From Marsupella aquatica (taxonomy: Eukaryota; Plantae; Marchantiophyta), in contig OZ316895.1 of assembly GCA_973895155.1 (NCBI GenBank), positions 928,435 to 992,434 of the forward strand: 64,000 nt of DNA, read 5' to 3'. Made by a program: the position numbers and the translations under genes. Under the pieces are notes generated by a model that ran no database searches, was not told the origin of the DNA, and saw only the letters and a list, made by a program, of their open reading frames with translations. Every line of letters begins with the position of its first letter. Positions within the stretch are counted from its first letter, which is position 1. This document shows, piece after piece, positions 15,527 to 64,000 of the stretch.

Positions 15527-17400
15527 AAGTAAGAGCTTCGGGCCAGCGATAGATATACCCCCGGAGAAGGACGATGACTACCGACGGGACGACCCGAAGC
15601 TATTTTTCCCCCGCATCAAAGAATTGGTAAAGAAACAGCTGGAGGCCTACGAAGCTCGGGAATACCAGAAGGCAATCGATAAGGACATCAAAGCAGCCAA
15701 GACAGCCCGGCGACAGGAGCAAGAAAAGCAAGATAAGCAAGAGGAAGCCAAGCAGCAGCCGAAGGAAGAAAAGAAGGAGGACTATGATATTAAGGAGGAC
15801 GTGAAGAGTTGCCCGGTTACAGCAACGGTAGGACAACTGCTGCAAAACAATCCACAGTACAAACGGCAACTGAGGGAGTTGCTTACGGGTCGACGATGGA
15901 GAAGACTACCCCGAGTTGGGACCGCGGATTGCAACATGATATGCGAGGACCTGGGAGCGTCGGACATCTCGATTGAAATTAATAATTGTACCATCAGGAT
16001 GGTTCTCGTAGACGGAGGAGCGGGAGTCAACATCATGACGGAAGAAACGTCAGTCAAGTTAGGATACCTCACGTATCAACCCACAGCCCGAGCTATCAGA
16101 TTAGCAAACGGGGCAAGGGTACTTCCATTGGGCACGCTTACACGGGTACTCACTCTGGTAGGAGGGGTGGAGTTCTATCTCAACTTCCTAGTCATGAGGC
16201 CGGTTCGGCCCTCCTCTTATCCGGTCCTCCTAGGCAGGCCGTGGCTGTACGGTGGCCGTGTGGTCACGGATTGGGGAAAGAAGGAGCTACGGTTCGGGAC
16301 ACCCACAGTACGGGTATCATGGGCAATGGACGATTATCAGGGCGAAACCCCACAGGGACCCGAGGAATATGATTCGGAGACCTCGGAGGACGAGGAACTC
16401 AACATGATTGAACTCATATCGTCCCTGTCCAAGGAAGATGTCTTCGGAATTGAGGCAACCCGCGAAACACATCTCCTGAATTACCCGAAGGCTGCTATTG
16501 AGCCCACCCCAAGCACCTCTACTGCCCGGGATGAGGAAACGCAAAAACAACTCATCGATACGGAGGACCCGGCTCCAGCTAAGCAGGGAGCCGATGTTGC
16601 TTCTACCAGTGCAGAGCCTCATGACCACGAACCAGCCAAACAACTGGTCGGGGCTGAAACCCCGAGACCAAGACATAAGAAACGAGTCTCCTGGGATCCG
16701 TCCATCCCGCAGTTGGAGGAAGTCACTCCAATCCCGAGACCAATCCCGGTTCCACTCATGTATGGAGGATTTCGGTTAGCTGAACTTGATGCGAGCCTGG
16801 ACCCGAGCTTGCGGAACCAGGTTGAAGTCATCAGGAAGGAGCACTACCGGAAGTACACCATTGGGATGGATAAATCGTTTAACCTGGGCCACGCTCTGAC
16901 AGGGAGGCGGAAAAATCTATCCAAGCTCTGCTCAAGGAATATGAAGATGTGTTTGCATGGAGCCATCACGATTTAACAGGAGTCTTCCCCGAGTTAGGAG
17001 AACACACGATTGATTTGAATCTGGGGGCCCATGCAGTACGGCAGCGACAACGTCGCATGAACCCAAGGTACTCCATCTTAGTGAAGGAGGAAATTGATCG
17101 TCTCCTCGCCGCAGATATCATCTACCCGGTAATGGCCAGCGACTGGGTCTCTCCCATCGTCATTGTACCGAAAAAGGGAGGAACGGACGGAAAACCTAAG
17201 ATCCGGATTTGTTAGGACTATCGTAAGCTGAACGACGCGACCCGAAAAGACCATTACCTGTTACCCTTCACGGATATGGTTCTAGATATGGTAGCCTGAA
17301 ATGAAATTTATACATTCCTTGACGGGTATTCGGGTTATAACCAAATCTGGATTCGCCTCTCGGATCAGCTCAAAACAACGTTCACTACGGAATGGGGGAC
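15471..17400 (+). pseudogene. pol: Gypsy pol: aspartic protease and N-terminal half of reverse transcriptase
   Basis: MVLVDGGAGVNIM...LLGRPWL; after a frameshift, FAWSHHDLTGV...WVSPIVIVPKK...KIRIC*DYRKLN...FLDGYSGYNQI. Confidence 0.85.
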
Positions 17401-31100: not shown

Positions 31101-31979
31101 GTAGCGTAGACTACTATTTTGGATCCAGCGTCAAAACAGCCATTACAGGTACGCCTTTCATCTATGTTTGGGTTCATTATTGATTAGGGCCTCTCAACTC
31201 TCAAAGCACTGTCTTAACGAGTATGAGTTGGCCATAAGGAGAGTGTGTTATGGGAACGACCATAAAAGTTAAACGATGCCTAACTTGGCTTCCATAAAAA
31301 AATGTTGCGGTCCACCCAAACCTGAAACTTCATTTTTGAGACTTTGAATTTGCGTCATCATAGAGTTATCACAAGATTGCGTTATCCAGGGACTGAAATG
31401 ACATGCCAGTCAATTTGTATTATTAGAAAGCTATTCATTTGTGACCGCTTGTTGAGGTAACAGGTTTGGGCTTGTTCGACAGGGGCGGGCCAAAAACACT
31501 TACTCTGAGCAGGAGTATTCATAACTCATTCCTTAGCACAAGTCAATGCATATCCTCCCTGCACCCAATGGCCCGTAAAGTCTGGTCATAAGGTGTTTTA
31601 TGGACACAACTGGTGTCCCATAACTTTTCCTTACGACCCTGCCTTGAGACGCCCTATTAAAAGCACAAGCCGAGTGCCAATTCTTTGAACCTAGAGAAGG
31701 TCAATGTGAGCACATTCAAGCCCTTTGCCAATTTGACTCCTACCCCAACTTTGGTTACACCCCAGTTAGGGTTCACAGGTTTCAGTCTGGACCCCAGGCC
31801 CTGAAGAGTAGCTTTAATTAAATTCAGGGGACATAGATTCATAGGCAAACTGAAGACTCAACATAGAATTCATGAGTGGAAGTGCAGCTTGGCTTGAATT
31901 GCAGTTTGTCTCCAAAGCTCACCACAAACAATTTGTATGGAAAACTACCCTTTCAGTAGCCACCTAGTTAGTGTATGGG

Positions 31980-32515
31980 TGTCGTGACATATAGTATCGT
32001 AGCCATAGTGTATCGAAAACATACAAGTCACCGGCAAGGCATTTGTTCAAGCTGCTAGCAACCAACATGCATAGAAAAAGTCCAATCACATTCACAAGTG
32101 CCAAGAAAAAGCAAATGAAGTGGTATGTACGTAGTGGAGGTGTAAACCTCTGTATAATAAAAGGCGTAAGAGAAACAATTGTACTGAAATCGAATCGAAA
32201 ACCGGCAGGATGCCAAGATCGGTCGGGAGCATCTAACGAATCACTGTGTGAATCCCGTGTACGGAACCGACGAGCATTGTCTGAGCTCTATCAACAGCGA
32301 TTCAAGAAAAACTGAAAAACCCACAAACAAAGACATGCCCTAAGTAAACAAAGTCCTGGCGTCACACTAACAAGCGCGTTTGCTTCAAGAACGCCTAGCA
32401 TTTGCTATAAGAACATGTCGCTAACTCAAGTATTACACTAGCCCTAACTACATACCTAGCGGACATGTGAGGGACATGCCGATGTGCATAAGAGGCACTG
32501 TCCCTCGGCATGACA
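31980..32515 (-). repeat. Terminal repeat unit A+B (536 bp) at the element's 3' end
   Basis: TGTCGTGACA...GGCATGACA. A = 31980-32155 and B = 32156-32515. Homologous over its full length to the solo unit 63049-63583. Confidence 0.92.
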
Positions 32516-32517
32516 GT

Positions 32518-32694
32518 TGTCGTGACATATAGTATCGTAGCCATAGTGTATCAAAAACATACAAGTCACCGGCAAGGCATTTGTTCAAGCTGCTAGCAAC
32601 CAACATGCATTAGAAAAAGTCCAATCACATTCACAAGTGCCAAGAAAAAGCAAATGAAGTGGTATGTAAGTAGTGGAGGTGTAAACCTCTGTAT
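32518..32694 (-). repeat. Second copy of repeat A, separated from B by a 2-nt spacer
   Basis: About 3 differences from 31980-32155. The junction reads ...GGCATGACA-GT-TGTCGTGACA... on the plus strand. Confidence 0.92.
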
Positions 32695-32701
32695 CCCCCC
32701 C
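32695..32701 (-). promoter_or_regulatory. Polypurine tract (G7 on the sense strand)
   Basis: CCCCCCC on the plus strand abuts repeat A exactly, about 30 nt past the integrase-PHD stop codon. Confidence 0.65.
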
Positions 32702-32733
32702 AGACCACAGCCAAAAGGAGGGCTGAAGAAAAT

Positions 32734-34063
32734 TCAGGTAGCACATGGAGCACAGGAAGGGTGAAACCATAACCCTTGTGCCACCTGGGTAAGTTCAGGC
32801 CGAAGGCAGAAAAGATGGTACCCTCCATTGCAATTGTCACACAGCAGCATCTGGTCAGCATCATCAATTCGCAAACACACTTTGCAAGGGTAGTCCACAG
32901 GTGGAATCCAAGTAGAAGTCACAATGGTGGGATCCAGGTTAGGCAGATGACAAGGGGCGCAATTCTTGGCATTGTCAGCAATTGTGCGCCCATCTGCCCC
33001 TTGTAACTCTAGCACTCCAGACGGCCGAATAACTTTAACCCTGAGAATAGTATGACTGGTAGAGGTGTCCAGGGTGTCGTTAGCTTGCCGCTGCAAGTAC
33101 ACAAAATCTCCCACTTCAAACTTCCTGACCTTGGGCTGAAAAGTGCCCCCTCGTGTGTGTGCATAACGCAGTGTGTCTCTGTGCTGTGCGATGGCCAAAT
33201 TCTCCATGGCCATGGGCATAACCCTCCTGAATAGGGCAGCCCTCTCAGAGATCACATCAGACCAAGTTACAGCTGAATCCAAGTCTACCACCTGAAGCAT
33301 GTGAGCAGCAATAGCAGAAGGTGGAACTGGGTGACGACCAAACAACAAGAAGTAGGGAGAAAAGTTAGACAGTGATGCATGTCTGGACATCCTATACCCC
33401 ATGGCAATGTAGGGTAAGGCCAGGTCCCAATCCTCCTTGTTTTTGGTGAGGCAAATCTTCCGGAGACCCTTCTTGCATGTCTGAACCATGCGCTCTGCCA
33501 AGCCATCTGCCTGTGGGTGATCTCATGATGTCCGGCGATGATCAATGAGAGCCTGATCAAGCAGCTCCTGGAACTCTCCTCTAAACTCTGAGCCCTGGTC
33601 AGCGAGACATTCTGCACAAGCTCCAAAGCGGCTGAGAACTTATTGCAGGAATGCCTGGCTGGTGCTACGGGAGGTCTTATCCGACAATGCCACAAGTTCT
33701 ATCCACTTGGAGAAATGCTCTATCATGATCATGATGTAGAGATTACCCCGAGACGTGAGGGGTAATTCTCCAGCCAAATCACATGACCAGCGATAAAACA
33801 TGCCCTAAATAGGGAGTGGATGAAGTGGGTTGCCGAGATGTGAAAGAAGTCCTCACCCTATCACACTGGGCAATAACATCTCGAACCTGGCCATGCATGC
33901 CTCTCCAATGATAATGAGGGACCAAAAGGCTGTAAGTCCTCTTAATGCCAAAATGACCAAGCTCAGAATGTACCTTACGGATAAGGCCAACCCTCTCATG
34001 AATGGGTGGAACCACCACTTCCCTGTCTGGCAAGCAACGCACAAGATGATTTCCTTTCCACAA
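32734..34063 (-). pseudogene. DDE integrase with C-terminal PHD finger (frameshifted)
   Basis: Zn-binding HSELGHFG...C; core DLAGELP, DQGSEF and AERMVQTCK; SPYFLLFGR; then CKVC...MLLCDNCNGGYHLFCL...WFHPSC (C4HC3 PHD, seventh ligand altered to H). Confidence 0.88.
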
Positions 34064-34096
34064 GTAACGCTTGGACCTTTGCTGAATTCGGTCTCT

Positions 34097-34912
34097 CTAC
34101 ATGTATGGGGTACCCCCATGCTGCAAAAATCTCAGAGTGTCGTTGTCCTCCCATATGTCCACCACAGGTTGGTCAACAACATAGCATGGCAGCAAAGCAA
34201 GATAGGTAGATGCATGAAATGTAGGCAGGATGGAAACCTGGTCAAAATCTTGTCGTGCATCTGAGGAATCATCAAAGGCAATCAAAGGGCTGCGGGACAT
34301 AGTGTCAGCATTTTGATGTGTCACACCAGGCCTATGAATTACCTCAAAATCATACTCCTGGAGTATGAGTGCCCAACGAGCAAGCTTGCCAGTAAGCTTG
34401 TCGTTGGTCATCAACCACTTCAAGGGTTGGTGGTCGGTGTAGAGAACAAACCTGGTCCCATAGAGGTAGGGCCTATAATGTATGACAGCCCACACAACAG
34501 CAAGGCATTCACCCTCATAAGAAGAATAATGACTCTCTGCCTGATTGTTGCTCCTGGATGCATAGGCAATGACGTACTCTTTACCTTCCTCATCATGCTG
34601 GCCCAGAATGGCACCAATCCCAAGGGCACTCCAATCTGTGTGTAGCACAAAGACCTTGCTGAAATCAGGTCTTCTTAGCACCGGGTATTCTGAGAGCTTC
34701 TCCTTCAAAGTGGCAAATGCTGCCTCAGCATCTGTACTCCATGTCCAAGTCACATTCTTTTTCAACAAAGCATACAATGGGTGTGCAATGGTGCTGAAAT
34801 CTTTGATGTAGATCCGGTAGTAATTGCACAACCCAATAAAACTCCTCAAAGTGTGAACATCGGTAGGAGTGGGCATTTCCAAGATGGATACCACCTTGGC
34901 CCAGTGAGCCAT
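34097..34912 (-). pseudogene. Ty3-type RT connection and RNase H
   Basis: LRSFIGLCNYYR, LHTDWSALGIGAIL, YSSYEGECLAV, YTDHQPL, NADTMSR. In frame with RT across a single stop at 34988-34990. Confidence 0.92.
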
Positions 34913-34987
34913 GGTTCCATTTGGAAGAATGCGGTGCCCAAGGTATACTACTGATCTGATAGCAAATTCACACTTCTTGGGGTGTAT

Positions 34988-35700
34988 CTATAGGTTCACC
35001 TTCTTAAGCCTCATGAATAGCTCCTCGAGGTCAAGTAGATGCTGGTCAAATCCTTTGCTGTGGACCAACACATCATCAATGTAGCATTTGAGAAACTCAG
35101 CACCTTGAAGAACCTGGTCCATGACTCTTTGAAAGAATATGGGCACATTCTTCAAGCCAAATGGCATCACCAACCACTCCCATAGTTGGTTACTACCATG
35201 GAAAGTTGTTTTCTTGCGGTCCTTTGCAAGCAGCAAAATCTGGTTAAAGCCTTGCCTTAGATCCACAAGAGTAAAGATGTCTGAGTCTCCAATGCTGTCA
35301 AATAGCTCCTCTGGCCGTGGCATGGGGTACCTGTCTTGGGGTGTGACCAGGTTCAGTGGCCTGTAGTCCCCACACATGCGCTTCTCTGTCCACAATCCAT
35401 TGGAATCCTTCTTTGCTGGCATCACTGTAGCTGCTGCAAAATCTGATGTAAATGGCTGAATAAGACCAGCTTCATATAACTCTTGGCACCTCTCATCCAC
35501 CAGCTGCCACTCATGCTTACTCAAACGATGTCTCCGCCTAGGTGTTTCATCAGCCAACTCAATGGAGAACTGCATGGTCTTGCACTTACCCAAGTCCTTC
35601 ATAGAGAAAGCAAACACGTTCTCATGCTTGAGGAGCAAATTCAGCAGCTGGTCCTTCTGTCTTTTACTCAGGTGGTTGCCCATGATGAATGTGTAGTTGG
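34988..35700 (-). pseudogene. Ty3-type reverse transcriptase
   Basis: RMCGDYRPLN, DRYPMP, DLRQGFNQI, KTTF, VMPFGLKN and YIDDVLV in ORF 34988..36475. Confidence 0.95.
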
Positions 35701-36049
35701 CAACACTAGGAATAGGACCTGATGTACTCGTGCTTGAAGAGCCAGAAGTGCTAGCCTCTCCACTGTCCAAGCTGCTAGCATGCTGCTGATAAGGTGATGA
35801 GGCCTCTCCAAGGCCTGTTGTATCTGTTGCTCTGGTCTGATCCACACCATGAAACTCAGAAATAATATCAGCCACGTTACAAGGGACCTCCTCCCCCCCA
35901 ACACTTGGACTGAAGCGGTGAGTGTTGAATAGAGGTAAGTGCACTTGGTCTGGGTGCCATGTAGCAGCACCATGGAGTGGTAGGGCTGGAACTCCTGATG
36001 CTGGATGAATGTACATCTGAAAAAGGATGCAAGTGACCAGAAGCCAAGT

Positions 36050-36965
36050 GAGAGCATTAAGATCCATTACCCTACCAAGTAAAGCATTCCTGGCCAGCTT
36101 GGTGATTTTGGTGTGGCATCTAGTACCGGGTTGGAAGCCCATAGCCCGTTCTCTCTCCTCAGGACTAGGTTCATCCCATGTACCGGTAGAATGTCGGTAA
36201 ACCAAGCCAGGACCATCACCCTGAAAAGCATGTGCACCTGGAAAGGACACAAATGTAGGCCAAGCAGCACGGGGCTGTCCAATGGTATTGGCTGGATACC
36301 AAGGTGCTGGCTCTTGCTGTGTAACTGGTTGGCAAGAACTGTCAGGATCCAAAATCTGGTCCACTGTGAGGTTAGTGTCCCTGGATGTGTGGTGAAGAGC
36401 TAACTCCAACAAGAAAGGTTGTGCAAGGTTAGTCCAAAAGTTACGAAGACGATGTGCATAAGAACCACAGTGCACTGCATCAATGAGAAGGGTGGTCCCA
36501 AGTAATGCTGGACCACACTGAAATCCTCTTTGACCTGTGGACGCTGGTCAAACTGAGATGGAATATTCTCAATGATATAGCCAACAGCAGGATAAAGGGA
36601 TTGAGCCCAGGTGAGAATCTGAACCAATGCTGTGAAAAGGCCAGAACGAGAATCATGCAGTCCAGCAGCTGAAAACCCTTGGCATTCCCAACCAGCTATG
36701 ATCAAATCAAGGGAGCCAAGAAGGTTTAAGTGTCGGTGCTGGACAAGCTGGATATCTGGAGGGAAGAAAGAAAATGCAGACTTCCATGCACTGTGTGGAA
36801 ACTATTGGGGAAATCGCTCTGAAAATTCCAGCAGACGGGATTCAGCCATTTGCCTTGCACCTGGATCAATGTCCACGTAGATGTACTGCTTCACCACCAT
36901 GCCAGACTGTAGGAGAGCTTCCAAGCCTGTAGAAATGCCACCAAAAAGCTCAAGCAATGTAAGGC
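36050..36965 (-). pseudogene. C5 cytosine DNA methyltransferase domain, DNMT3-like, embedded in pol
   Basis: Motifs in canonical order: I LLELFGGISTG, II YVDID, IV DLIIAGWECQGFS (catalytic Cys kept), VI YIIENI, VIII AHRLRNFWTN, IX ERERAMGF, X RNALLGRVM. One in-frame stop (36802) and one frameshift (near 36490). Confidence 0.85.
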
Positions 36966-37299
36966 CATCCGGAGGAGGAGTCCATGTAACTGGTGCGCTC
37001 AAGATTGGGGCTATTGGTTGTCCATTGTGCTGCCCAAGGTCCTCAAATTTGTGCAATGTAGCCACCAAAGGTCCATGGGCTGCTTGGAGCCGTTGTACCA
37101 CCTCTGGTTGATGATCCACATTGATGGGAAGTGCTGCTATACGTGCAACAACATGTGCAGCAGCCACCTCATCATCATCCTCCTCAATCCAATCCTGCAA
37201 TGGGTGGTTGACATAGGTAGCTGTGTGCACTGCTTTCAAAACACAGTGGTGAGCCATAGGTGTATGAGCACCATGCAAATCAAGTGGAATGTAGCCCAA

Positions 37300-37779
37300 G
37301 TGTGAGCCATCCGTATGCCAATCAACTCTGTAGTATGCATGCTCATGCCAGTTGTCAATGGTAAAACCTGGTGGGAACAAAGCCTCCTGGCCAATGAGCA
37401 CATCATACGTAGTGGCATTGGTAACCAAACATCTGACTGGGAAATGCAGTTCCTGATCTGTACCTCCATTAAAAGTGAGAGTGAGTAAAGTAGAACTCTC
37501 ACCCAGCACATCCTCCACAGTGCCACTAGTAGTCCAAATGTGCCACTTGGATTGCTGTAAATGATTAGTCAGCAGTCCCATCTTCTTGGCAAACTGAATG
37601 CCCAATATCATTGGTTGAGCACCTGTGTCTAGCATGACCACCTGAGGAGTGTGACCGTCCAACTTGACCGCTGAATTCATGTTGGCAACAATGGCAATGG
37701 TGGTGGAAACTGAAGTCCTATCGCTAGGCACCACTTTTGGCAAATGATGAGGTACTTTGTGAAGGGAGTTAGTGTCCAC
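37300..37779 (-). pseudogene. Retroviral-type aspartic protease
   Basis: VMLDTGAQPMILG...YDVLIGQEAL in ORF 36802..37779, in frame with DNMT motif I. Confidence 0.85.
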
Positions 37780-37813
37780 GGTGTCCGGGTGACCATGTAA
37801 TCTTGTAAGAGCA

Positions 37814-38998
37814 TGTTGGCTCTTACAAAGTTAACTTTGCATGCCCATAAGTTCTACACTAAAACTAAAATGATAATTCTAGTAACAAGGGTAGTGGGTA
37901 TTAAGAAAGGTTCAGGTGAAACTAAAATACTGTTAAACCCTACTTCACCATACTTGCGGACCAACACATCACGGAAATTAGTTTTCTTACGACATATGAT
38001 CCTAATATCTCCAAGAGAAAATGAAACAGGAATATCATCTGGACTCCTATTCAAGTCCATGACTTCAATAAAAGATAAAGATAATGCATTCCCACTCATC
38101 ACGGTACGACACTACTGGGTATATTATCGGCTCGTTAGAAACCATAACAGCAGTTGCAAACTGAGCTCCAAAATGATAGGTTAAATGTTGTCTCATAGAT
38201 GGTTTGTCTAAAAGATGGACTCTAATCAAAAATGGATTACGAAGGGGAAGATCAGGGATAATTCTCTCTCTTGGATTCATGATGTCTCTCCTATTCCTTT
38301 GCTATCCGGGCCAAAGGACGCCCCACCCCTAAATTCCCAAAGAAACCTTATTTCCTAAGGTCCCATCTATAAGTCTACCACTCATTCCTTTGCTATCCGG
38401 GCCAAAAGACGCCCCACTACTATGTTTAAGGCACAAAGAGCTTCACAACCTTGAATGATAAACACTGCGGAATGAGGGGAGAGTGCCCCTCACCACTTTA
38501 TTTATAGTGCACACCAAGAGGGCATGGATCAAGCCCAAGCACTTGGATAAAGACCAAGTGTCAAACATCTAATACCTAAGAGTGTGCTAGTACTGTTCAT
38601 AGTTGGTGAAACTACTTTTAGTAGGGGGAACTACCATGCATTGGTGGAACTACTGTGCGTTGGTGGACCTACTGTGCGTTGGTGGAACTATTGTGTGTTG
38701 GTGGACCTACTGTGCGTTGGTGGTCCTACTATGCGTTGGTGGACCTATTATGCGTTAGTGGACCTACTGTGCATTGGTAGAACTATTGTGCGTTGGTAGA
38801 ACTACTCATATACATTGGTAGAACTACTCATATGCATTGGTGGAACTATTGTAGTCCGTTAATATTGCTAAAGAAGTTAATAAAGTCTAAATTTAATAAT
38901 CTAACTACTAAACTACTTATATAATCTATAACATATTAAAACATCCAATTTTTTTATAACTTAAGAGAAAATCATGACAACGGACTTTCTATTCAACA
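37814..38998 (-). mobile_element. Nested solo-LTR-like insertion (about 1.2 kb) from an unrelated family
   Basis: TGTTG...CAACA termini. AT-rich and interrupts the gag-protease linker. CTATAAATAA on the minus strand near 38500. Internal tandem array. No clean 5-bp TSD. Confidence 0.6.
38620..38855. repeat. 19-bp minisatellite, about 11 copies (GGTGGA[A/C]CTACTGTGCGTT)
   Basis: Head-to-tail units with no spacers. Confidence 0.9.
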
Positions 38999-39550
38999 AC
39001 ATAGTTAGGAAAGATGGGGCAGCATGACCAAATCAAGTGTAGCTCTGGTCACATAATCTGCAGCAATACTGTCATCTCTACCACTGGAAATTGGTACTGG
39101 GATAGCCAAACCAGTGGAAATATGTAATGGAGAAGAAGAAGGTCCATTATGTACATGAGATTGGACCTCCAAAACCGGTGTCACAGGGGATGATAAAGAA
39201 TGCAGTGAGCCCTCTAGCGCTCTGATGACAGCTCTAGCATCCAGTTGTAAATCATGGCAACTGAAAAGTGGAGTTGTAAGAATCCTTTGTGCCATACCGG
39301 AGGTGAAATGCTCAAGGAGCTCAGGAGAAACAATTCCCTGTGAAATGTCAGCAGCACCTGGTGGTGGAATGGATGTAGCTGCAGCTTCCTCCCCCCTCGC
39401 CAACAAGGTGCGCTCTTCAGCAAGTGTGAGTGGCTGAAAAGATTGGGGCAAGACAGCCCGAGCCCCCCTGGCTCTAGTCATAGGACCGGCAGCAAGACCA
39501 TCAGCCTGTACAATGCGGCGTGTGGGAGCAGTACGGGAGGCTACACTAGC

Positions 39551-41071
39551 CTATTGGTAAGCAAAATAGGAAGGGCAGAATGAATCTGAAAATTCTGCTG
39601 TAAGGCCAGGCTGTGTAGCAGAGGACAGCACACACTCACCCATATGAGCATCAAATGGCAAGCCATAGAAAGAGCGGGGTAGAGATGCTGAACTGTCAGT
39701 GGTGTCTGGGCCCGAGATGGGTTGCACGTGACCAGCCGGTTGAGAAGGACCAACAGAGGCAAGTGACTTGCCTTTGATGTTGGCAAGTTGGGCACGTAGG
39801 GACTCAACCTCATGAGTCAGAGACTGGATTTGAGTTGCCTGTGCATTGTGAGCTTCCTTCTGAGCTGGTTGCTTCTGTTGCTGCTTGGGCAATTTGTTGG
39901 CACTGGGTGCTTTGCCACTGGAAGGAGGAGCAACTGATGCAGTAGGAGCCCTCCTAGCTGGTGGGGGAGTGGAAACAGGAGCAGGATGAGTGGCCTGTTG
40001 TCGTAGCTGCTTCCTCTTTGGGAATTTGGCAAAACAAACTGCCTCCAAGTGGCCCACTTTCCCGCAAAAATCACAAGACAAGTCCTCAGCAACAATATCA
40101 CATTCATTAGCCTTGTGATTTGGGTTACCACAGTAGTTGCAAGATGGCAGCATGAAAGCAGCATGGGCTGGCTTGGTCTTGGAACCATACTGTGGCACAC
40201 GGGAAGGGGTGGCCAGTGTAGGGGCAGCAGCCTGGTACCTGGATCGCGGTGGACGCGCAATACTGGCCTCATAATGTGCATGGGCCAACTCAAGTTTCTC
40301 AGCAGTGTCATAGACATTGAGCAGGGTGTAGCTGTCTCCAAACTTTGAGAATACTTGCTGCAACACTTGCGAATGGAGAGCTGGTGTGCCCTCCAATGCA
40401 CGAAGATAGCGATGAGCAGCTTCCAGGTCAGTGATGCTCTGGGTGTCCTCCTTCAGCTTGAGAAGCTGGCGATACATCATCTTCAAGGTTTCATCGCGCT
40501 GCCTCACAAAGGTGGTCAACTGCATGATTTTGTCAGCACTCTTGATTGGGAATTCCAATTCAAGAACCTGGAAAAACTCAGCCACTGGATCAGCAAAGGC
40601 AGGAGAATCAATGGTGGGAGAAATGCCTGATGTAGCCTGTGCCAAGACAGTGGGAGTAATTGGCGTAGTGGTAGGAACTGGAGTAGGAGGGGAAGTGGCA
40701 GGAGCAGTAGCATGGGCTGCAATGGCATTCTGTAAGGCCAATTGTGAGGCTGCCGCAATTGCACTGGCATAGGTAGGGTTAGGCAACTGTGTGACAACAA
40801 GCAGCCGTTGAGAATGTTGCTCATACACATCCAAAGCCTCATGGTGCACATACCTAGCTAGCTGCTTAAATGCAAAAGCATTTGTGAAATTGCTATCGTA
40901 CTTCAACTCCAATTCATAAACGATAGTGTAGAAAGTGGATTTGAACTCACGCAAAGAAAGAGTGCCTGGACGCCCGCTGAAGCGCTCAATGTGGCCAGAT
41001 GAGTGGCTGACATCCATGCTGTATGTTGGTGAAGCTGGAACAACCACTGATGCAAAAGGAGTAAAGGGCAA
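39551..41071 (-). CDS. gag: Gag-like protein with two CCHC zinc knuckles
   Basis: 506-aa ORF: ERFSGRPG...REFK; knuckles CNYCGNPNHKANEC and CDFCGKVGHLEAVC; lies upstream of the protease. Confidence 0.8.
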   Translation of the reverse strand: MPFTPFASVVVPASPTYSMDVSHSSGHIERFSGRPGTLSLREFKSTFYTIVYELELKYDSNFTNAFAFKQLARYVHHEALDVYEQHSQRLLVVTQLPNPTYASAIAAASQLALQNAIAAHATAPATSPPTPVPTTTPITPTVLAQATSGISPTIDSPAFADPVAEFFQVLELEFPIKSADKIMQLTTFVRQRDETLKMMYRQLLKLKEDTQSITDLEAAHRYLRALEGTPALHSQVLQQVFSKFGDSYTLLNVYDTAEKLELAHAHYEASIARPPRSRYQAAAPTLATPSRVPQYGSKTKPAHAAFMLPSCNYCGNPNHKANECDIVAEDLSCDFCGKVGHLEAVCFAKFPKRKQLRQQATHPAPVSTPPPARRAPTASVAPPSSGKAPSANKLPKQQQKQPAQKEAHNAQATQIQSLTHEVESLRAQLANIKGKSLASVGPSQPAGHVQPISGPDTTDSSASLPRSFYGLPFDAHMGECVLSSATQPGLTAEFSDSFCPSYFAYQ

Positions 41072-41784
41072 AGAAGCAATAGCAGGCTTTGGGGTAGTGG
41101 TGAAGCGACCGCCAAATGTAGCAGAAGGGTTGCGTGGTGTGGGTGCTGTTGTTGTCTGTTGATGCCGTCAAAATTGCTGAGACTCCAATGAAATTGGCAC
41201 CAATGGTCGTGGATCACTCCGTAAGTGGTACTTGGGTGTCGGTGGCGATGAGCTGCTATGACTTGGCTCCTTTGCTAACATGTTGCATGCTCACTCGGGG
41301 TGCCAATGGGAAAGAAACTGAGAAGAAAAAGGTGTGGCAACCCCAAGGCTATGAAATGTAACCCACAAAGGAAACAACACTGCAAGGCAAAAATGTGTAG
41401 ACCGGCCCTGCCGAAAATATACTCACAAGAAAATGAATGGAAAGAAAACAAGAGGAAACGGCCAAAAGGGGCCTCCGTTATGTGTGTAGACAGGGGTCTG
41501 TGTATACACATAAAGGGCACCGGTCGGTGCCCAATGTGGATACATTGTCGGGCTCCCTGGAAGAAAAAGAGGCCAGAAAGAAGCAGGTGTACGCACACTC
41601 GGGAGGCACGGTACCCTATGCTGCAGGGCGAGGCGAGGTGAGGCTGAGGCGAGGTGACAACTTAATGGCTCGGGCCCTGCATAGGGCTTCGTGCCCCACT
41701 ATGAGCTCCCCCTATCCCCCTTTTGGGCCTTGTGCCCTGGCAGTGAGTGACTCCCGAGAGAGGAGTCGAGAGTACTCCCCCCCG

Positions 41785-44700
41785 TTAAGGGTCGTGGGGT
41801 TATTTTAATGCCTCTCGGCTTACCAGAGCTTGCCACGTAGGCAGCTTTATATTTCATTATTTATGGTCGTATTTGGGGTGTATTTATACACTCGAAGTTT
41901 ATGAATACAGCTGGCAGATTTTTCAGACATGCAAATAATTCAATAGGGAGAAATCCCACAGCGGGGAATAAAACTTTATTCATATGTAAATCAAGATTTA
42001 CAGTGACTCGACAGAGTCTAACAAATGAATGCCCAGAAGGCAGTTCTTGACAACAATTAATTGTCTAAAGAATGTCCATCTATAGGTCTATTGTAATATC
42101 TGTCTAATCTGTATATGGAAGTGTTGTCTGTAAACTATCTACAATCTATCAGTGCTAACTCTAACGATAATGCCTCACAGGCTAATATGTGCCTAGGTTA
42201 CTGTCAATAATGCCTCATATGTTTAATGACAGTCCAGAGGATGGTCCTCCTCCATCTCCACCTCCCGGGGGTCCCCCTCCATGAGGACCAAAGTTGAGGC
42301 TGAAACTGCAGCCATTCATGGTGCAATTTGTTAATGCCTTAATATTTTCAAAAACAGTGTTGATTACTGGATTAATCATGACCGGCAAGCGGGCAATGCC
42401 CTTAAATCTTGGTCCGAACAACTTAAAGCATCCCAATCCATGGACTCAAAGAAAATATCCAAGTCAGTATCTGTCTCCTCTTCAACAAAATGCGTTGAAA
42501 CGTCAGTGTCCAGTGTACTCAGGCCCTGTTCAGTAGCAGGTGCCACAAGCTCAACACTCATAGTTGGTGTGACAACTTCTTCACTAACCAACACCTCCAT
42601 AACCGGCTCGGCTACTGGTTGAAGGAGAGTCGGCTCCATTTCTATCACAGAAGGCAAGCTGGACTCTGTAGAATCAGCACCTGCACTCACCAAGAAATCA
42701 CCAAGAAAAGAATGAGTTATATTCAATAATAACATAATCAATAAAAAGTATGCATGAACAAGTCAGCTTGCTCTATTACCTTTGGAAGGGAGCAACTTTG
42801 TTCCGTCCTTCAGTTTCTTAGACAGTGGCTCGTCCACTACAGAAACAGCAGGCCCAGTCACATATTCGCTCTTCTCGCCATCAATAAGCGCCCTCTTGCC
42901 TTTTGTTGTCTCCAAAGTCACTGTCTCAGGGTAAGCAGTCCCATCCGAGGCACATCTAAGTGCCGCTCGCACCTTAGCCTCTGTGCTGCGGTTGTACCTC
43001 TCATATGCACCCTCGCTTTTGTGGCCTGAGATCTTCATCCCAACCTTTGGTGGAACACCCTCAGCTCCCATCCGAGAGATACAGGTGGTGCGTCCAGTTT
43101 TATTGGAGACACCATCAGTACCAAGGCCAGCCTCCTGATGCAACACTTTCAGACAAGAGCCGAGTGTCTTCTCACCAAGCCTCGACGTTGAGTACCATGC
43201 ATGCGTCCGCAGGTGGTCAATGCATTGATAGAAAAGAAATGTTGCACTTACAGGCAGATGATGGATTAACATCCAAAATGTATTGACCACATCAAGGTCA
43301 TAGTTAATCACAGCAGGTCTGAAATGCTCCTCCTGATATCGATCCATACTCACTCTATAGTTCTTGCTAAGGGGCTCATCGTATTTCACAAAATCACCAT
43401 GGACATCAATTGCAAAAATAAAGTCAGCCTTCATAAGATTATACAACTCCTTACCGCCACAAATACAAAACCGATTCAGTAAAAAGAAAACTGCCCTCCT
43501 CTGCAGGCCTCGCGAGTGTGAGACAGAGGTACTCGAATGAGCCAATATGGTGGCCTCATCTGCAAAAGTAATGACAGAGGCTTTCTTCCTTGGCACATTA
43601 GCGCCTGACTTCTTTGAGCGCTCCATTGCCAACACACAGGCCACAGCCACTGGCTTGAACAGAGGTGAAGATCGCATGTCAAACACTCGCTCAGATTCCT
43701 TACCTGTCTCAACCACACGCTTCTCTTGTTTCTTCCGCAAAATACAGTGAAACGCACGATAAAGACCCATCAAGGTCTGTGAGGGATAGAGCTTACCGTC
43801 CTTCTTGCAAACCTGTTCAAAGAACTTTGTCAATAGCATCACACAGTCTCGGCCAGGCATTTCCTCTAACGGAAGTGTGGTGTTCCACCCTTTAAACTCA
43901 TGGAACTTATTGAGCCGATTTGCAGCCCATCGATCAACTGCAGCGCTCGGATTACTACCACCCTCGGAAAGGTTGCGCTGAAACTCTGCATCTTCAGGTA
44001 AGAACTCACAGGAAGTTCCATTTGGGAGATTCACTGTAAGCTGTTGCGAGATCAAATACTCAAGTGCAATAGCATCCGGGTCCCCATTCAGGTTATGAAT
44101 GTCTGATTCTGAAACAAAGCAACAATAGGCACCAGATGAAGTTTCGCCTACAAGATCACAAATCGTTCCACCAGCGATTGCACCTTCGGATGCCATTGCT
44201 GACATTCCAAGGCTGAATGATGGCCCTTGATCCTTGTCCAAGTCTGGTACGTAAGAAAATCATTCAGTTAGCTTAAACGGAGCCTCGATCGGCTGTACAA
44301 CTACAATGGCAGAAGATGAGGTTTTGGAGACAAATGGTGAGGAAGAAGCGGCCCAACCTTCATCGTCATCGCGAGCGCAAACAACAATGAATACATTCAA
44401 GAAAACGGTCAACTGAACCTGGGGATAGTTTTGGAGGCATTATGATGAGCCTTCGATCGCAACGTCAATATACAACACACTGCAGAAAGCTAAGAAGTAT
44501 GTTAGTACTTCTGCATGATCAGGCCAACCTTCTACATGATCAGGCATTCATCTGAGCCTTCGATAATGGCTTCGATGAGCATTCTACAGATATCTGAGCG
44601 GGAGACGTTCAGAAAAATGATTAGTCTTACATAGATCCTTTCCTTCACTTTCAACCACTGCAAGTGATCGTCGCTATGCAAACCAAAATTACCTCAAGTT

Positions 44701-45714
44701 ATGATGAAATCTCGGGAAGAAGGCACGAAGGAGAATTCTGAACATGAGAGACCAAAAACCAACAACCAAATCAGTCCTTAAGCTGAACCGTAATGTAGTG
44801 AATCGAGAGCAAAGCATAAGCATGGGCTTCACATATCTACATGGAGAAAGCATTCGGCTGATTCTGCATAAAGCGGCATTGAAGGAATGAACAATAGCAT
44901 TCAGAATGAAAAGACATTCAAATCAAGCGGCATACATCCAATAAAGCACTCAATACGAATAGAGTAGTTGACAGGAAAAACCAGAGAAGCTGAGATCGTG
45001 CTCCCAGTGAAAAGTAGAGACCAATTGGTCCACTCGCAAGCTCAAAAACTCCAAACGACGGCCCACACCGAGTCGCTCGCAGATGACAAAGCGCACAACC
45101 CGTCCCACACACAATCGCCCGCAGATTCACCAGCGCACACCCGACGCTGCAGAGACAAACTTGCAGCCTAACGACAAAAAGTGAGACAAGGAATTCCTCT
45201 TGCAGATTAAGTAAAGCCCGCCCCAGAATCCACCGACTGGTCCACAAAAATCTCAGCCGTCCATTCTGGGTTGACCGTTGGATGTCGATCTACAAACGCC
45301 CTAAACCCTAACACGTTACGCCGTTGGATGTCATCTTAAACCGTTTAGTTTTGAATAGAGGGCCAAGATTGGCCGCGGGTTGACGAGCCCTGAATGGAGG
45401 GTGAAGATTGGCCGTGGAAAGAGAAACCCTCTATGGAGGGCCAAGATTTCTCGAGACTGGCATTTCAGAATGGAGGGCCTGGATTTTCTTGGAGGAGCGT
45501 GATCCTGCATGGAGGGCCCAGATTTACCGCGGGAAGAACACTGGCAGCCGCGGAGTATTGTAACCTGCAGGTACATTCTTAAATCAATTTGGGCCCTTCA
45601 ATTTTGACGGAGGGTCGAGATGGCATGCAGAGATGGGAGCCATGACTGACACAGCGGCTGGAGGATGCGCGCGTTTTAATCTGGGCCGTTGGTAATTCTT
45701 TGTACGACCCTTAA
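41785..45714 (-). mobile_element. Crypton-like tyrosine-recombinase DNA transposon nested in the retroelement 5' region
   Basis: Bounded by TTAA-GGGTCGT (41785-41795) and ACGACCC-TTAA (45704-45714). Encodes a DUF3504-type recombinase. The reconstructed empty site resembles the neighbouring repeat unit at 45908-45955. Confidence 0.7.
42763..44241 (-). CDS. Tyrosine recombinase of the Crypton/DUF3504 (ZMYM/QRICH1/KCTD1-related) type, main exon; probably inactivated
   Basis: FFEQVCKKDGKLYPSQTL N-terminal signature; ICGGKE (RGGxE with Arg to Cys, TGT from CGT); SKN; NKTGR (HxxR position); MKISGHKS...YERY. Candidate splice sites near 44244 (acceptor), 42778 (donor) and 42681 (acceptor). Confidence 0.82.
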   Translation of the reverse strand: MDKDQGPSFSLGMSAMASEGAIAGGTICDLVGETSSGAYCCFVSESDIHNLNGDPDAIALEYLISQQLTVNLPNGTSCEFLPEDAEFQRNLSEGGSNPSAAVDRWAANRLNKFHEFKGWNTTLPLEEMPGRDCVMLLTKFFEQVCKKDGKLYPSQTLMGLYRAFHCILRKKQEKRVVETGKESERVFDMRSSPLFKPVAVACVLAMERSKKSGANVPRKKASVITFADEATILAHSSTSVSHSRGLQRRAVFFLLNRFCICGGKELYNLMKADFIFAIDVHGDFVKYDEPLSKNYRVSMDRYQEEHFRPAVINYDLDVVNTFWMLIHHLPVSATFLFYQCIDHLRTHAWYSTSRLGEKTLGSCLKVLHQEAGLGTDGVSNKTGRTTCISRMGAEGVPPKVGMKISGHKSEGAYERYNRSTEAKVRAALRCASDGTAYPETVTLETTKGKRALIDGEKSEYVTGPAVSVVDEPLSKKLKDGTKLLPSKGNRAS

Positions 45715-45720
45715 CGCATA

Positions 45721-45839
45721 TTTAGGGTCCCTTCGTGCCCCTTAATGGGGTATGGGGTCTCCCGTACACCTCCCCACTCCCGCGGGTCGGCATACGGTCG
45801 ACCCCAATACCCCATTAAGGGGCACTGAGGGACCATAAA
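45721..45839. other. Imperfect inverted repeat (arms about 35-40 bp, loop about 40 nt)
   Basis: GGTCCCTTCGTGCCCCTTAATGGGGTATGGGGTC pairs with GACCCCAATACCCCATTAAGGGGCACTGAGGGACC. Confidence 0.85.
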
Positions 45840-46608
45840 CATATACTTTAAAGCTGAATTAAGGGCTTCGTGCCCTGCAGGAGGACTCCTGAGAGAGGGA
45901 GTCGAATGTACTCCCCCCCTTGAATGCTTCAGAGTTGCTTAGGGCCTCGTGCCCTGCTTTCGCTTCAACTCCCCCTCCTCCTTTATTCTCCATAGGGCCT
46001 CGTGCCCTCGGTTCTCGCTCCTTCTTCCCTGTTTTAATTGTAATGGCAGGAAGCTGGCAAGTGCATCGGAAAATGAGATGAAACGAAAATGGAGGGAAGG
46101 GGAGAAGTGCCGAGGGGAGGCGCATGGCCAAGAACGTAAGGATGTAATAGGGGCTCGGTCCTATGCAGTCGTGAGGTAGTCGCAAGGTGGCTGAGGCAAA
46201 CTCGCCGGCAGCCGTGGCCGGGAATGCGACCATAAAAACTAACAAAAAAGGCCCCCCCCAAAGTGTCATAAAAACGCGAGCGAGGGCGCAACGGCCTGTG
46301 CAGTCTGTGAAGCGTCGGGGGTCGTGCAGCAGCAGTCGGCAGCACGTCACGGCCGGAAAGTACAAAAAACTGGCCAAAAAAGTCGTGACAGTCGGCAGCA
46401 ATCGTAGCAGCAGCAATTGTGGAAGCAGATCGAGTTGCGGCCGGCAAGAAAAATCCGGGCCCCTTGTTATGTGTATACACTTAACACCACAATAAACCCA
46501 TAACTTTTAACTCGTCACTCCGATGTCCGTCAAAGAAATTGCAATGGCTTCACCAAAAATTGTCAAAATTGTCACGAGCAATCTTCTTCCCGTCACCGCT
46601 AACTCGAG

Positions 46609-46622
46609 AGTTCTTCTTGAAT
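46609..46622 (-). promoter_or_regulatory. Candidate self-priming primer-binding site
   Basis: AGTTCTTCTTGAAT (46609-46622) is the exact reverse complement of ATTCAAGAAGAACT (46764-46777) inside repeat B. No TGG tRNA-type PBS follows B. Confidence 0.65.
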
Positions 46623-46979
46623 AAAAGGCGTAAGAGAAACAATTGTACTGAAATCGAATCAAAAACCGGCAGGATGCCAAGATCGGCCGGGAGCATCTAA
46701 CGAATCACTGTGTGAATCCCGTGTAGGGAACCGACGAGCACTGTCTGAGCTCTGTCAACAGTGATTCAAGAAGAACTGAAAAACCCACAAACAAAGACAT
46801 GCCCTAAGTAAACAAAGTCTTGGCGTCACACTAACAAGCACGTTTGCTTCAAGAACGCCTGGCATTTGCTATAAGAACATGTCGCTAACTCAAGTATTAC
46901 ACTAGCCCTAACTACATACCTAGCGAACATGCGAGGGACATGCCGATGTGCATAAGAGGCACTGTCCCTCGGCATGACA
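46620..46979 (-). repeat. Repeat B (360 bp) forming the element's 5' terminus
   Basis: About 12 substitutions versus 32156-32515 by eye, 11 of them transitions. Ends GGCATGACA followed by TGGG. Confidence 0.92.
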
Positions 46980-47079
46980 TGGGCTTGCACTTCAAATAAG
47001 AGTGGCATTGTAAATTATTGTGACATACCATTGTTTTACTGCCAGCCCAGGGGCCCTATAAGGAACTAGGGGCACAAAT

Positions 47080-56535: not shown

Positions 56536-58044
56536 TCAAAGAAATACAATCAAGCATGCTATATCGTCTTTGCTGTGTCTTTGGAGTGCAGCAGAGACCA
56601 CTCTTTGGGCCACCTCCTGTGCAGTGCCTGGAGTGGACCGAACGAAATCTACTACTTCTTGGCTGCTCATAACATGCCAGACTCCATCACTCGCTATGAC
56701 AAAGAACTCATCATCAACAACCAACTGGTCATCCCAGATGTCCGGCTGTACTGAAAGGTGCTCCTTAAGGTCGTAATCACCAAATGCTCGTGACATTGCT
56801 AATCTATGGTCAACCCTATATATTCCACTTGCAAGAGACCTTGAAACAACACCGCCCTTTGACTCCACCTGAATGAGATCACAAGATGGTCCAGTCCAAT
56901 TTCAAGAGAGGGAATTGTCACTGGGAAATATGTATACAACTCGGAAATCCAAAGACATTCTTAAGAACTTATTTAATAGCTGATTCGTGTCAATATAGCA
57001 TGCATATTGACACGTTGTTATTCAAGCTCATACCAATATTTATTGCCAAGAAAGCATTCGTACCATTTGTCGTTCTTCAGGTTTTTGAGGTTCATGGTCG
57101 ACTGATAAATCAACAGCCTTTCCTCCCCTGGACAAGACAGCCCTCGAGTCACCCACGTTTGCAACTATCAAGTGTTTTCCATTATCCAGTAACAACGCTG
57201 TAGTAGCAGTTGATCCGACGCGTAACTTCATGTCTGTGGTTCCCATACCAATAATTCTGCAATGCGCATCCCATTCGTGATTATCCTCATCTTCGTGATA
57301 GTTCTAACTCAGAGAACGAAATCTATCAGAGAAGACACTGAAAGCAAAAACTTGAGGATTATTGCAGATACATGTGCTGAAATAATTTTCTGTCTGCTAT
57401 CTGGGGTGCTATGTATCATTTTCTGGGTTCCACGCACAATTTAAGCTACTAGTTAAAAATTCTGATATTATTGGATTATAATTATCTGGTTGGTTGTCTG
57501 TGCTTCAATGTTCATTTGCTAGCTCTCACGACTAGGAAGCTATACTGTACTTTCGAGAGTGTCATTTCTGTTAAGCTGGGAAAGGCTCTACGATAATGTT
57601 TCCCAGCCAATGCTGCAATGTCTCTGTAAACTGGAGCAAAAAATTCACACAGTTAGAACTGTATACCGCGAACAATTGACATGTTGAGAAACGACACAAC
57701 AGGATGTAATGTAAGACCGAAGCAGACCTTTTATCAGTTTCATGGTATGCTTCAATAATAGACTTCTTTGGATCCTTCCAAAAATCTTCGTGTGTTGTGA
57801 TGACCTCAAACAGATTGTCTGTTAAGTACACTGCTACATCAGGGCCGGCGTGCCCATCCATTATGGCAAACAAACCTATCTCTTGGTTATCTACTTCCTG
57901 AATGCGGGCCACATGAAAGTCTTCAATAGTAACTTTTCTTCGGCCCTTCACTTTTGCAAACCCATAAGAAACTCGAGCTCTCTTTCCTTCCCTGCCCACA
58001 CGCGGCTCACTGTTTCCTCCTGTCTCCAAAAACTTAATTGGTAC
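56536..58044 (-). CDS. Protein phosphatase 2C (PPM family); exons 58044-57728, 57256-57064 and 56868-56536; upstream exon not resolved
   Basis: GT-AG introns join in frame. Motifs [50 protein letters not shown] and SKDDIACL are all intact. Confidence 0.92.
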
Positions 58045-62649: not shown

Positions 62650-63010
62650 TCTCAAGTCCTTGTATGGATTGAAGCAGTCTCCCAGACAATGGAACAAGCG
62701 ATTTGATGATTTCATGTTTGCTCAAGGTTTTACAAGGATGGTGTATGATCCTTGTGTGTATACAAAATCAATCAAGAATGATGTATTTGGTTTCATCATT
62801 CTAGTTATCTATGTGGATGACATGTTGATTGTGACTAAAGATCAATCTGAGGTTGACAATCTCAAGGCAAAATTGAGTGTTGAATTTAGGATGAAAGATC
62901 TTGGTAAGGCCAAGAGGATCTTAGGGATGGAGATTTTTAGGAACTCTGAAACTGGACAATTGTGTTTGAGTCAAGGCCAGTATGCAAGGAAAGTTCTTAC
63001 ACGGTTTCCA
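62650..63010 (+). pseudogene. Ty1/Copia reverse transcriptase fragment
   Basis: LYGLKQSPRQWNKRFD...DPCVY...YVDDML...MKDLG...ILGMEI. Confidence 0.9.
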
Positions 63011-64000
63011 ACGGGTCAGTGTTGATGGGAAATGAAATCCCAAGTCAATGTCATGACATATGGTATCGTAGCCATAGTGTATCGAAAACATACAAGTCAC
63101 CGGCAATGCATATGTGCAAGCTGCTAGCAACCAACATGCATAGAAAAAGTCCAATCACATTCCCAAGTGCCAAGAAAAAGCAACTGAGGTGGTATGTACG
63201 TAGTGGAGGTGTAAACCTCTGTATATAAAAGGCGTAAGAGAAACAATTGTACTGAAATCGAATCAAAACCGGCAGGATGCCAAGATCGGCCGGGAGCATC
63301 TAACAAATCACTGTGTGAATCTCGTGTACGAAACCGACGAGCACTGTCTGAGCTCTGTCAACAGCGATTCAAAAAGAACTGAAAAACCGACAAAGAAAGA
63401 CATGCCCTAAGTAGATCAAGTCAAGGCGTCACACTAACAAGCACGTTTTGCTTCAAGAACGGCCCAGACTTGCTACAAGAACATGACACTAACTCAAGTA
63501 GTACACTAGCCCTAACTACATACCTAGCGGGCATGCGAGGGACATGCCGATGTGCACAAGCGGCACTGTCCCTCGGCATGACATCAAGTTGTTGGACTTG
63601 GATCTGTAAGATTTCAGATGTTTGATGATGCTGTGAGAACGTTGAGGAATGTGAGACATATTCCCAGCATGATGAAAAATCTCATTTCACTTGGAGTTTT
63701 AGAAGCAAATGGCCATCAGTGGAGTTCTGCTAATAGTGTCCTTCAAGTTTCAACTGGTACTAAAGTTGTATTGAAGGGAAAGAGACATAGCAATCTATAC
63801 GTTTTGGAGGGCAGTGTAGTCTATGATGAAGCCAATGTAACCTTATCTCATGAGGAGACGGCCCGGCTGTGGCACTTCCGTTTGGGCCACATGAGTGAAA
63901 AAGGTTTGGTTATTCTTCAGAAGAAAAGATTACTTTCTAATTTGCAATCTTGCAAGTTGAAATTCTGTGAGCATTGTGTGCTTGGGAAGCAGCACAGGAA
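63011..64000 (+). pseudogene. Ty1/Copia pol fragment (protease to pre-integrase region), interrupted by a solo repeat and running off the window
   Basis: GSVLMGNEIPSQ | VVGLGSVRFQMFD...NVRHIPSMMKNLISLG...LWHFRLGHMSEKGL...FCEHCVLGKQHR reads in frame once the insertion and one TCAA are removed. Confidence 0.88.
63049..63583 (-). mobile_element. Solo A+B terminal repeat (535 bp) of the DNMT/PHD Gypsy family
   Basis: TGTCATGACA...GGCATGACA, collinear with 31980-32515. TCAA TSD at 63045-63048 and 63584-63587. Confidence 0.93.

Follow-up and report, generated by a model that had tools for sequence, protein, structure and literature searches.

The charophyte Klebsormidium nitens is known to carry a Gypsy retrotransposon with a Dnmt3-type domain, KnitGypsy-Dnmt3 (de Mendoza 2018, PMC5890265). 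Its repeats follow a DIRS-like arrangement, A-coding-B-A-B, for which the text on this element offers no mechanism, and there the capture is taken to be confined to the K. nitens lineage. The same source describes SymbioDIRS-Dnmt3 of dinoflagellates, which likewise has Dnmt3 in Pol and split direct repeats and whose enzyme was shown to methylate CG in yeast; the original prediction, too, had mentioned retrotransposon-borne methyltransferases in dinoflagellates and charophyte algae. As outlined in a recent preprint, the EpiLTRs of Cymbomonas and Euglena are also LTR elements that combine a cytosine methyltransferase with a chromatin reader, but their DNMT is sister to DNMT4 and is accompanied by DAM and a chromodomain (bioRxiv 10.64898/2026.05.21.726589). 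Single features recur elsewhere. In the descriptions consulted, the Chlamydomonas element Gypsy-7a_cRei has a PHD finger in Gag-Pol (PMC9940879) and Tf1/Tcn1 prime themselves without a tRNA (PMC6317226), yet for none of them is a methyltransferase listed. In a review, Morozov (2019, PMC6338049) states that land plants such as tracheophytes lack transposon-encoded DNA methylases, and rests an argument on this loss.

Here we describe a land-plant member of the kind already known from Klebsormidium. It lies on the minus strand of a window of 64,000 nucleotides, the whole stretch of DNA analysed, from the liverwort Marsupella aquatica (contig OZ316895.1). With KnitGypsy-Dnmt3, as far as that element is described, it shares an unpermuted Dnmt3-type domain inside a Gypsy Pol ORF, A-coding-B-A-B repeats and purifying selection. 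It differs in its present host, a land plant, and in having relatives that reach the chlorophyte Monoraphidium, in which the domain follows RNase H. The features of the element and its surroundings are as follows.

31980..46979, minus: whole retrotransposon, 15 kb, A-coding-B-A-B, TG...CA ends
31,976-31,979 and 46,980-46,983: 4-bp target-site duplication TGGG
46620..46979, minus: repeat A1, 360 bp, 96.7% identical to A2
46764..46777, minus: 14-nt A1 segment complementary to the primer-binding site, putative RNA 5' end and self-primer
46609..46622, minus: putative self-priming primer-binding site, adjoining the end of A1
41784..45845, minus: nested insertion of ~4.06 kb with a DUF3504/Crypton-type tyrosine recombinase ORF (42,763-44,259), foreign to the family
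39005..41017, minus: gag with CCHC knuckle, stop at ~39,551, 55% identity to Calypogeia P0290
37783..38984, strand unassigned: nested insertion of ~1.2 kb with a 19-bp tandem array, parting gag from protease
37378..37668, minus: aspartic protease (PF13975, E 1.4e-5)
36050..36965, minus: DNMT3-type C5-cytosine methyltransferase domain, with a stop at 36,802-36,804, a 12-bp deletion near 36,661 and a frameshift near 36,490
34352..35420, minus: reverse transcriptase (YIDD) and RNase H, stop at ~34,990
32930..34006, minus: integrase with H2C2 finger and D-D-E core, stops, frameshift near 33,825
32752..32886, minus: PHD finger at the end of pol (PF00628, E 8.5e-10)
32695..32701, minus: G run directly preceding B1, putative polypurine tract
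32518..32694, minus: repeat B1, CA at its end
32,516-32,517, minus: 2-nt spacer between B1 and A2 (CA-NN-TG junction)
32156..32515, minus: repeat A2
31980..32155, minus: repeat B2, 98-99% identical to B1
63049..63583, minus: solo A-B unit belonging to this family, flanked by a 4-bp duplication of its own, TCAA

Pfam places protease, DNA_methylase, RVT_1, RNase H, integrase zinc finger and PHD in this order, with a CCHC gag upstream, so that the full domain order reads gag-PR-DNMT-RT-RH-INT-PHD. Neither DAM nor a chromodomain was detected in the Pfam scan of the element. The PR-RT-RH-INT order, the DDE integrase, the TG...CA ends and the 4-bp duplication are those of Ty3/Gypsy elements; however, the ends are A and B rather than two complete identical LTRs, and the element is therefore an atypical member of that group. 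Membership in Troyka, described as animal elements with CG...CG ends and 3-bp duplications (PMC12440569), is ruled out by the TG...CA ends and 4-bp duplications. Gag and protease are uninterrupted in the relatives P0012 and P0290. The 1.2-kb insertion that parts them here, with its array at 38,602-38,806, is probably a separate abundant repeat, since its summed depth is high in runs X1, X2 and X4. The solo A-B unit seems, by eye, to break a Copia RT-like fragment (~62,650-63,048, minus).

A DNMT3-like cytosine methyltransferase, decayed and fused into pol between protease and reverse transcriptase, was the core of the original prediction. Six-frame translation of the minus strand gives the motifs in canonical order.

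~36,945, minus: motif I, ELFGG
between motifs I and IV, minus: motif II, YVDID
Cys codon at 36,682-36,684, minus: motif IV, GWECQ
~36,570, minus: motif VI, ENI
~36,457, minus: motif VIII, AHRLRNFWTN
~36,151, minus: motif IX, ERAMGF
~36,082, minus: motif X, LLGR

Motifs I-VI are read in one frame with the protease (ORF 36,802-37,830) across the single stop, and motifs VIII-X in one frame with the RT (ORF 34,988-36,547) beyond the frameshift. In other words, the predicted in-frame fusion at both ends is seen, interrupted by one stop and one frameshift. The catalytic Cys, the EN pair and the RxR are in place. A match to PF00145, which had been named as a check, was obtained for the N-terminal half with the stop read as X (E 9.9e-5, 22.3 bits, the cut-off being 22), and less damaged relatives match down to E 5e-9. 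The decay was also predicted correctly, and its three lesions are largely missing from sister copies. In four public runs contigs span the whole element including the DNMT; the stop is missing from all listed depth in all four, the frameshift is missing from most listed depth in three, and 12 extra bases at 36,661 are found in contigs or loose ends in three.

As judged by sequence profiles and a predicted fold, the domain is best described as a DNMT3-type cytosine methyltransferase, in agreement with the identity first proposed. In the PDB, a profile of 88 relatives matches DNMT3A at E 3.9e-21, and the 60 matches listed for it include no DRM and no HhaI; with a shallower profile DRM2 and HhaI are weaker than DNMT3. 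For the family profile, Ty3 Gag-Pol ranks first in the PDB. The stop-free domain of the relative L004, which stands in for the broken domain of the window, was folded with the 88-relative alignment (pLDDT 96.5). Foldseek returned DNMT3 in 30 of the 30 matches listed for this model, and VIA-align placed it nearest DNMT3A (Z 29.8, rmsd 2.4 over 269 residues), ahead of a bacterial CpG methylase (Z 25.8) and HhaI (Z 24.9). The catalytic domain of mammalian DNMT3A/B/C is thus the top match in both sequence and fold, with an identical, unpermuted motif order that sets the domain apart from DRM, whereas identity is ~27%, PWWP and ADD are lacking and WEC takes the place of SPC. All 88 aligned relatives retain the Cys, Glu-Asn, His and Trp. 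The reading WECQ with its Cys retained, singled out by the original prediction, is a family trait and not decay: the residue preceding the Cys is Glu in 59 relatives, Pro in 27 and Asp in two.

A family of Gypsy-type retrotransposons with DNMT3 occurs in liverworts and peat mosses. Searching with the C-terminal half gave 47 proteins among 1,603 candidates, including proteins of Sphagnum magellanicum and Calypogeia fissa, a second protein search gave 80 among 7,985, and a search of all representatives gave 371 at E<=1e-30. None of the family protein hits was labelled Klebsormidium. Four relatives, P0061, P0060, P0130 and Calypogeia P0290, have the window's domain order in a single ORF, which in P0061 and P0060 is ~2,355 aa long. 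The methyltransferase domain itself is intact in Calypogeia CAM6101866.1, P0061 and L004. A metagenome scan confirmed 480 of 600 matches, of which the best 80 were kept. These are 77-100% identical to the query P0002, itself closely resembling S. magellanicum proteins, and we infer from this that they are peat-moss DNA. Protease upstream and/or RT/RH downstream of the DNMT was found in 80 of these 80 loci, which were picked by their DNMT and are blind to DNMT-less sisters; the domain is thus present in sister copies rather than being a one-off capture. The longest ORF among the 80 is 847 aa, and none of them is an intact copy.

In the best 150 of the 371 representatives, the DNMT follows RNase H in 86 and lies between protease and RT in 15, and in 49 no neighbouring domain is seen. 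The sole named member of the first arrangement is Monoraphidium neglectum MNEG_11595, and the taxonomic range is accordingly drawn from few labels. In a tree of 114 element-borne DNMT domains, restricted to those with 230 residues or more, the PR-DNMT-RT forms make up a single clade (0.99), barring two distant sequences, and the window element's domain is sister to that of Calypogeia (support 0.97). The RT tree, built without reference lineages, also groups these forms, its deep support being weak. The distant elements P0120 and P0121, with DNMT before RT and 28-30% identity to the query, may stem from a separate capture or from an early branch. As to a viral donor, none was found, since 64 pattern matches in viral contigs yielded no confirmed one and the top phage match had 24% identity. 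The chlorophyte relatives suggest that the capture is much older than the Klebsormidium lineage.

Is the domain a passenger, that is, a host DNMT3 captured once and now decaying? Stops are indeed found in the window copy and in nearly all of the best 80 loci, and their density is highest in the DNMT (1.36 per 100 codons, compared with 0.75-1.23 in RH, RT, gag and PR). However, dN/dS, also named beforehand as a check, shows the domain to be under purifying selection at the level of the sequence. Between the window copy and 63 distinct relatives (the 80 loci collapsed at 98.5% identity), the median is 0.10 for DNMT, comparable to 0.09 for PR and 0.11 for gag, with 0.05 for RT, 0.06 for RH and 0.29 for the linker, all of these ratios being rough because dS is near saturation. 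Among the 63 themselves DNMT (0.36) and RT (0.39) are alike. The domain moreover persists at two places in the polyprotein, in hosts as far apart as Monoraphidium on the one hand and Sphagnum and Calypogeia on the other, and in 371 representatives. The passenger explanation is thus largely refuted, and we give it very little credence. What we favor instead is that the DNMT3-type domain built into the Gag-Pol of these liverwort and peat-moss elements methylates CG on new cDNA in intact copies, the window copy being broken; this is probable, if well short of assured. The Gag-Pol position, the conserved catalytic residues and the selection suggest an active enzyme delivered to cDNA. The enzyme would be made and packaged with RT and integrase, the cDNA would be methylated before or at insertion, and the new copy would come in resembling host DNA or with its chromatin state already set; histones at the target would be read by the PHD finger. 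The same role for methylation of cDNA, also put forward in the original prediction, was inferred by de Mendoza et al. 2018 (PMC5890265), in whose account the related dinoflagellate Dnmt3 is the one active on CG in yeast.

It is also conceivable that the domain is folded and selected but acts without methylating cDNA, either as a base-binding or base-flipping decoy that blocks host DNMT3/MET1, or on RNA, or on host DNA in trans. In the Klebsormidium case the Gypsy-Dnmt3 domain gave no methylation in yeast, a result that its authors call inconclusive in the text (PMC5890265). The canonical Pro before the motif IV Cys gives way to Glu or Asp in 61 of the 88 relatives, and the Glu weighs against the predicted activity. 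In a plant, self-methylation should lead to silencing of a new copy, which weighs against methylation of cDNA too. Against this alternative, the Cys, the EN and the motif VIII residues vary little or not at all in 88 sequences spanning 33-94% identity, as catalysis predicts, PC and EC alternate repeatedly on the DNMT tree, and the element has specifically lost CG. At codon junctions CG stands at 0.16 of expectation (23 vs 139.8), compared with 0.55 in the neighbouring Gypsy element and 0.51 in the nested recombinase (p 2e-6 and 0.002), a contrast based on these two comparator elements, and there is no CHG depletion in the element. The CG loss pre-dates insertion, since the window copy is too young to have accrued it (A repeats 96.7% identical, B repeats 98.9%). 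Nonetheless, it could also result if the host had methylated a long-lived family, and the flanks of 11 peat-moss-like loci are poorer in CG than the element, which runs against our preferred explanation. On balance we regard action without cDNA methylation as unlikely, but still a serious competitor. The neighbouring comparator is an unrelated, decayed Gypsy-type element (~13,600-17,400, plus) with gag, CCHC, protease and the start of RT, and no methyltransferase was found in its scanned ORFs.

The split repeats, which the original prediction leaves unmentioned, raise a separate question, namely how a Gypsy element comes to have ends A and B. Counted by eye with duplicates included, 16 of the best 80 loci have B-A-B at the 3' end, like the window copy, 14 have B alone with more than 2 kb of flank, and B precedes A at none of 29 5' ends. 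Exact 4-bp duplications flank five of seven B-A-B loci and five of six B-only loci, that is, 10 of 13 full-length loci. Adjoining A1 is a 14-nt exact complement of A positions 203-216, whereas the best of 2,000 shuffles reached 12. Peat-moss-like copies have other sequence with equal pairing (15 nt in L004 and L064), a self-complement of at least 12/16 is found in 21 of 23 loci, and the self-priming helix folds in both RNAs. There is no tRNA gene within the 64-kb window. The self-primer of Tf1 is 11 nt long. In all 15 distinct copies the B1-A2 junction reads CA-NN-TG, or differs from it by point changes, and is free of indels, as opposed to indels in eight of 17 A2-B2 junctions (Fisher p 0.003), two of the eight being large deletions and perhaps later damage. 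With regard to a possible remaking of B2 from B1 at each cycle, B1 and B2 of the window copy are 0.989 identical, vs 0.94-0.95 to the solo unit; in seven older loci within-copy B identity is not clearly above that between copies.

Together, the TG...CA ends, 4-bp duplications, self-priming site, purine tract and CA-NN-TG junction suggest a B+A LTR opened internally by integrase. The true LTR would be B+A, bounded by the purine tract and the primer site. The RNA would begin inside A and prime itself, and reverse transcription would produce an ordinary BA-coding-BA cDNA. Integrase, whose processed ends leave a 2-nt overhang, would then cut the CA-NN-TG site inside the 5' LTR, and joining of the two cDNA ends would give A-coding-B-A-B, the A2-B2 join being the scar of the ends. 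It is tempting to speculate that the 5' site is chosen as it may become double-stranded first. For TOC1 a circle model exists. We dropped the idea that A-coding-B forms are products of one-LTR circles: L007 5,196 (A-coding-B-A-B) and L021 536 (A-coding-B) have both flanks in common and represent one insertion site, which implies later B-B recombination or assembly collapse.

The A-coding-B-A-B layout equals that of PAT and Ngaro, and a tyrosine recombinase ORF does lie inside the element's boundaries, between A1 and gag. Hence the split repeats could in principle replicate in the PAT/Ngaro manner, the DDE integrase being incidental. This is the least probable of the explanations considered. 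SymbioDIRS-Dnmt3 is described as using a tyrosine recombinase (PMC5890265), whereas the window element has a protease, a DDE integrase and 4-bp duplications. DIRS, PAT and Ngaro elements have a tyrosine recombinase of their own and no DDE integrase, whereas here the recombinase is nested, in a 4-kb insertion that contigs skip in two of the four runs (joint 41,783-45,846; low depth), and the summed depth is ~100-fold higher over the element than over this insertion, a figure that does not represent copy number. None of the best 80 loci has a tyrosine recombinase match, and the TG...CA ends, the exact duplications and the D-D-E residues likewise speak against replication through a recombinase. 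The recombinase ORF is of the DUF3504/phage-integrase type (atlas score 0.98), its clusters with recorded taxa being mostly animal or fungal, and a hairpin with 40-nt arms (88% complementary) marks the insertion edge at 45,718-45,842. The insertion resembles a Crypton-type DNA transposon.

What this analysis adds is the end anatomy: TG...CA ends with 4-bp duplications, a self-priming site, a purine tract before B and the CA-NN-TG junction. In the literature searched, which did not extend to subscription journals or Repbase, there was no report of a bryophyte member or of integration through an integrase-opened CA-NN-TG site. The preprint on EpiLTRs does mention 'streptophytes (Gypsy-DNMT3)', and its supplement may include bryophytes (bioRxiv 10.64898/2026.05.21.726589). 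Since bryophytes have many copies, the loss of transposon methylases from land plants, if real, came later. If all the parts are combined, the window element is one branch of an ancient green-plant Gypsy clade that spans chlorophytes, mosses and liverworts. In this clade an active DNMT3 would have survived at two places in the polyprotein and would methylate the elements' cDNA at CG, and the DIRS-like repeats would be due to a DDE integrase opening CA-NN-TG inside the 5' LTR of self-primed, end-joined cDNA, without a recombinase; taken as a whole, this remains tentative and somewhat more likely to fail than to hold. The dead window copy is itself ordinary, and the interest lies in the breadth of the family and in its ends. 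Intact single-ORF relatives make the role of a retrotransposon's own methyltransferase testable in green-plant hosts, and the end anatomy yields a definite model, open to test, of how these Gypsy elements come by their DIRS-like repeats, which had lacked an explanation.

The window also contains a host gene, a PP2C gene with introns (~56,540-58,044, minus), which together with the sister relation of the element's DNMT to that of Calypogeia makes a liverwort host likely, if on thin sampling. A search with one of its exons gave three matches among 66 candidates, the best in Calypogeia fissa (81%), followed by Riccia (67%) and a further protein (64%).
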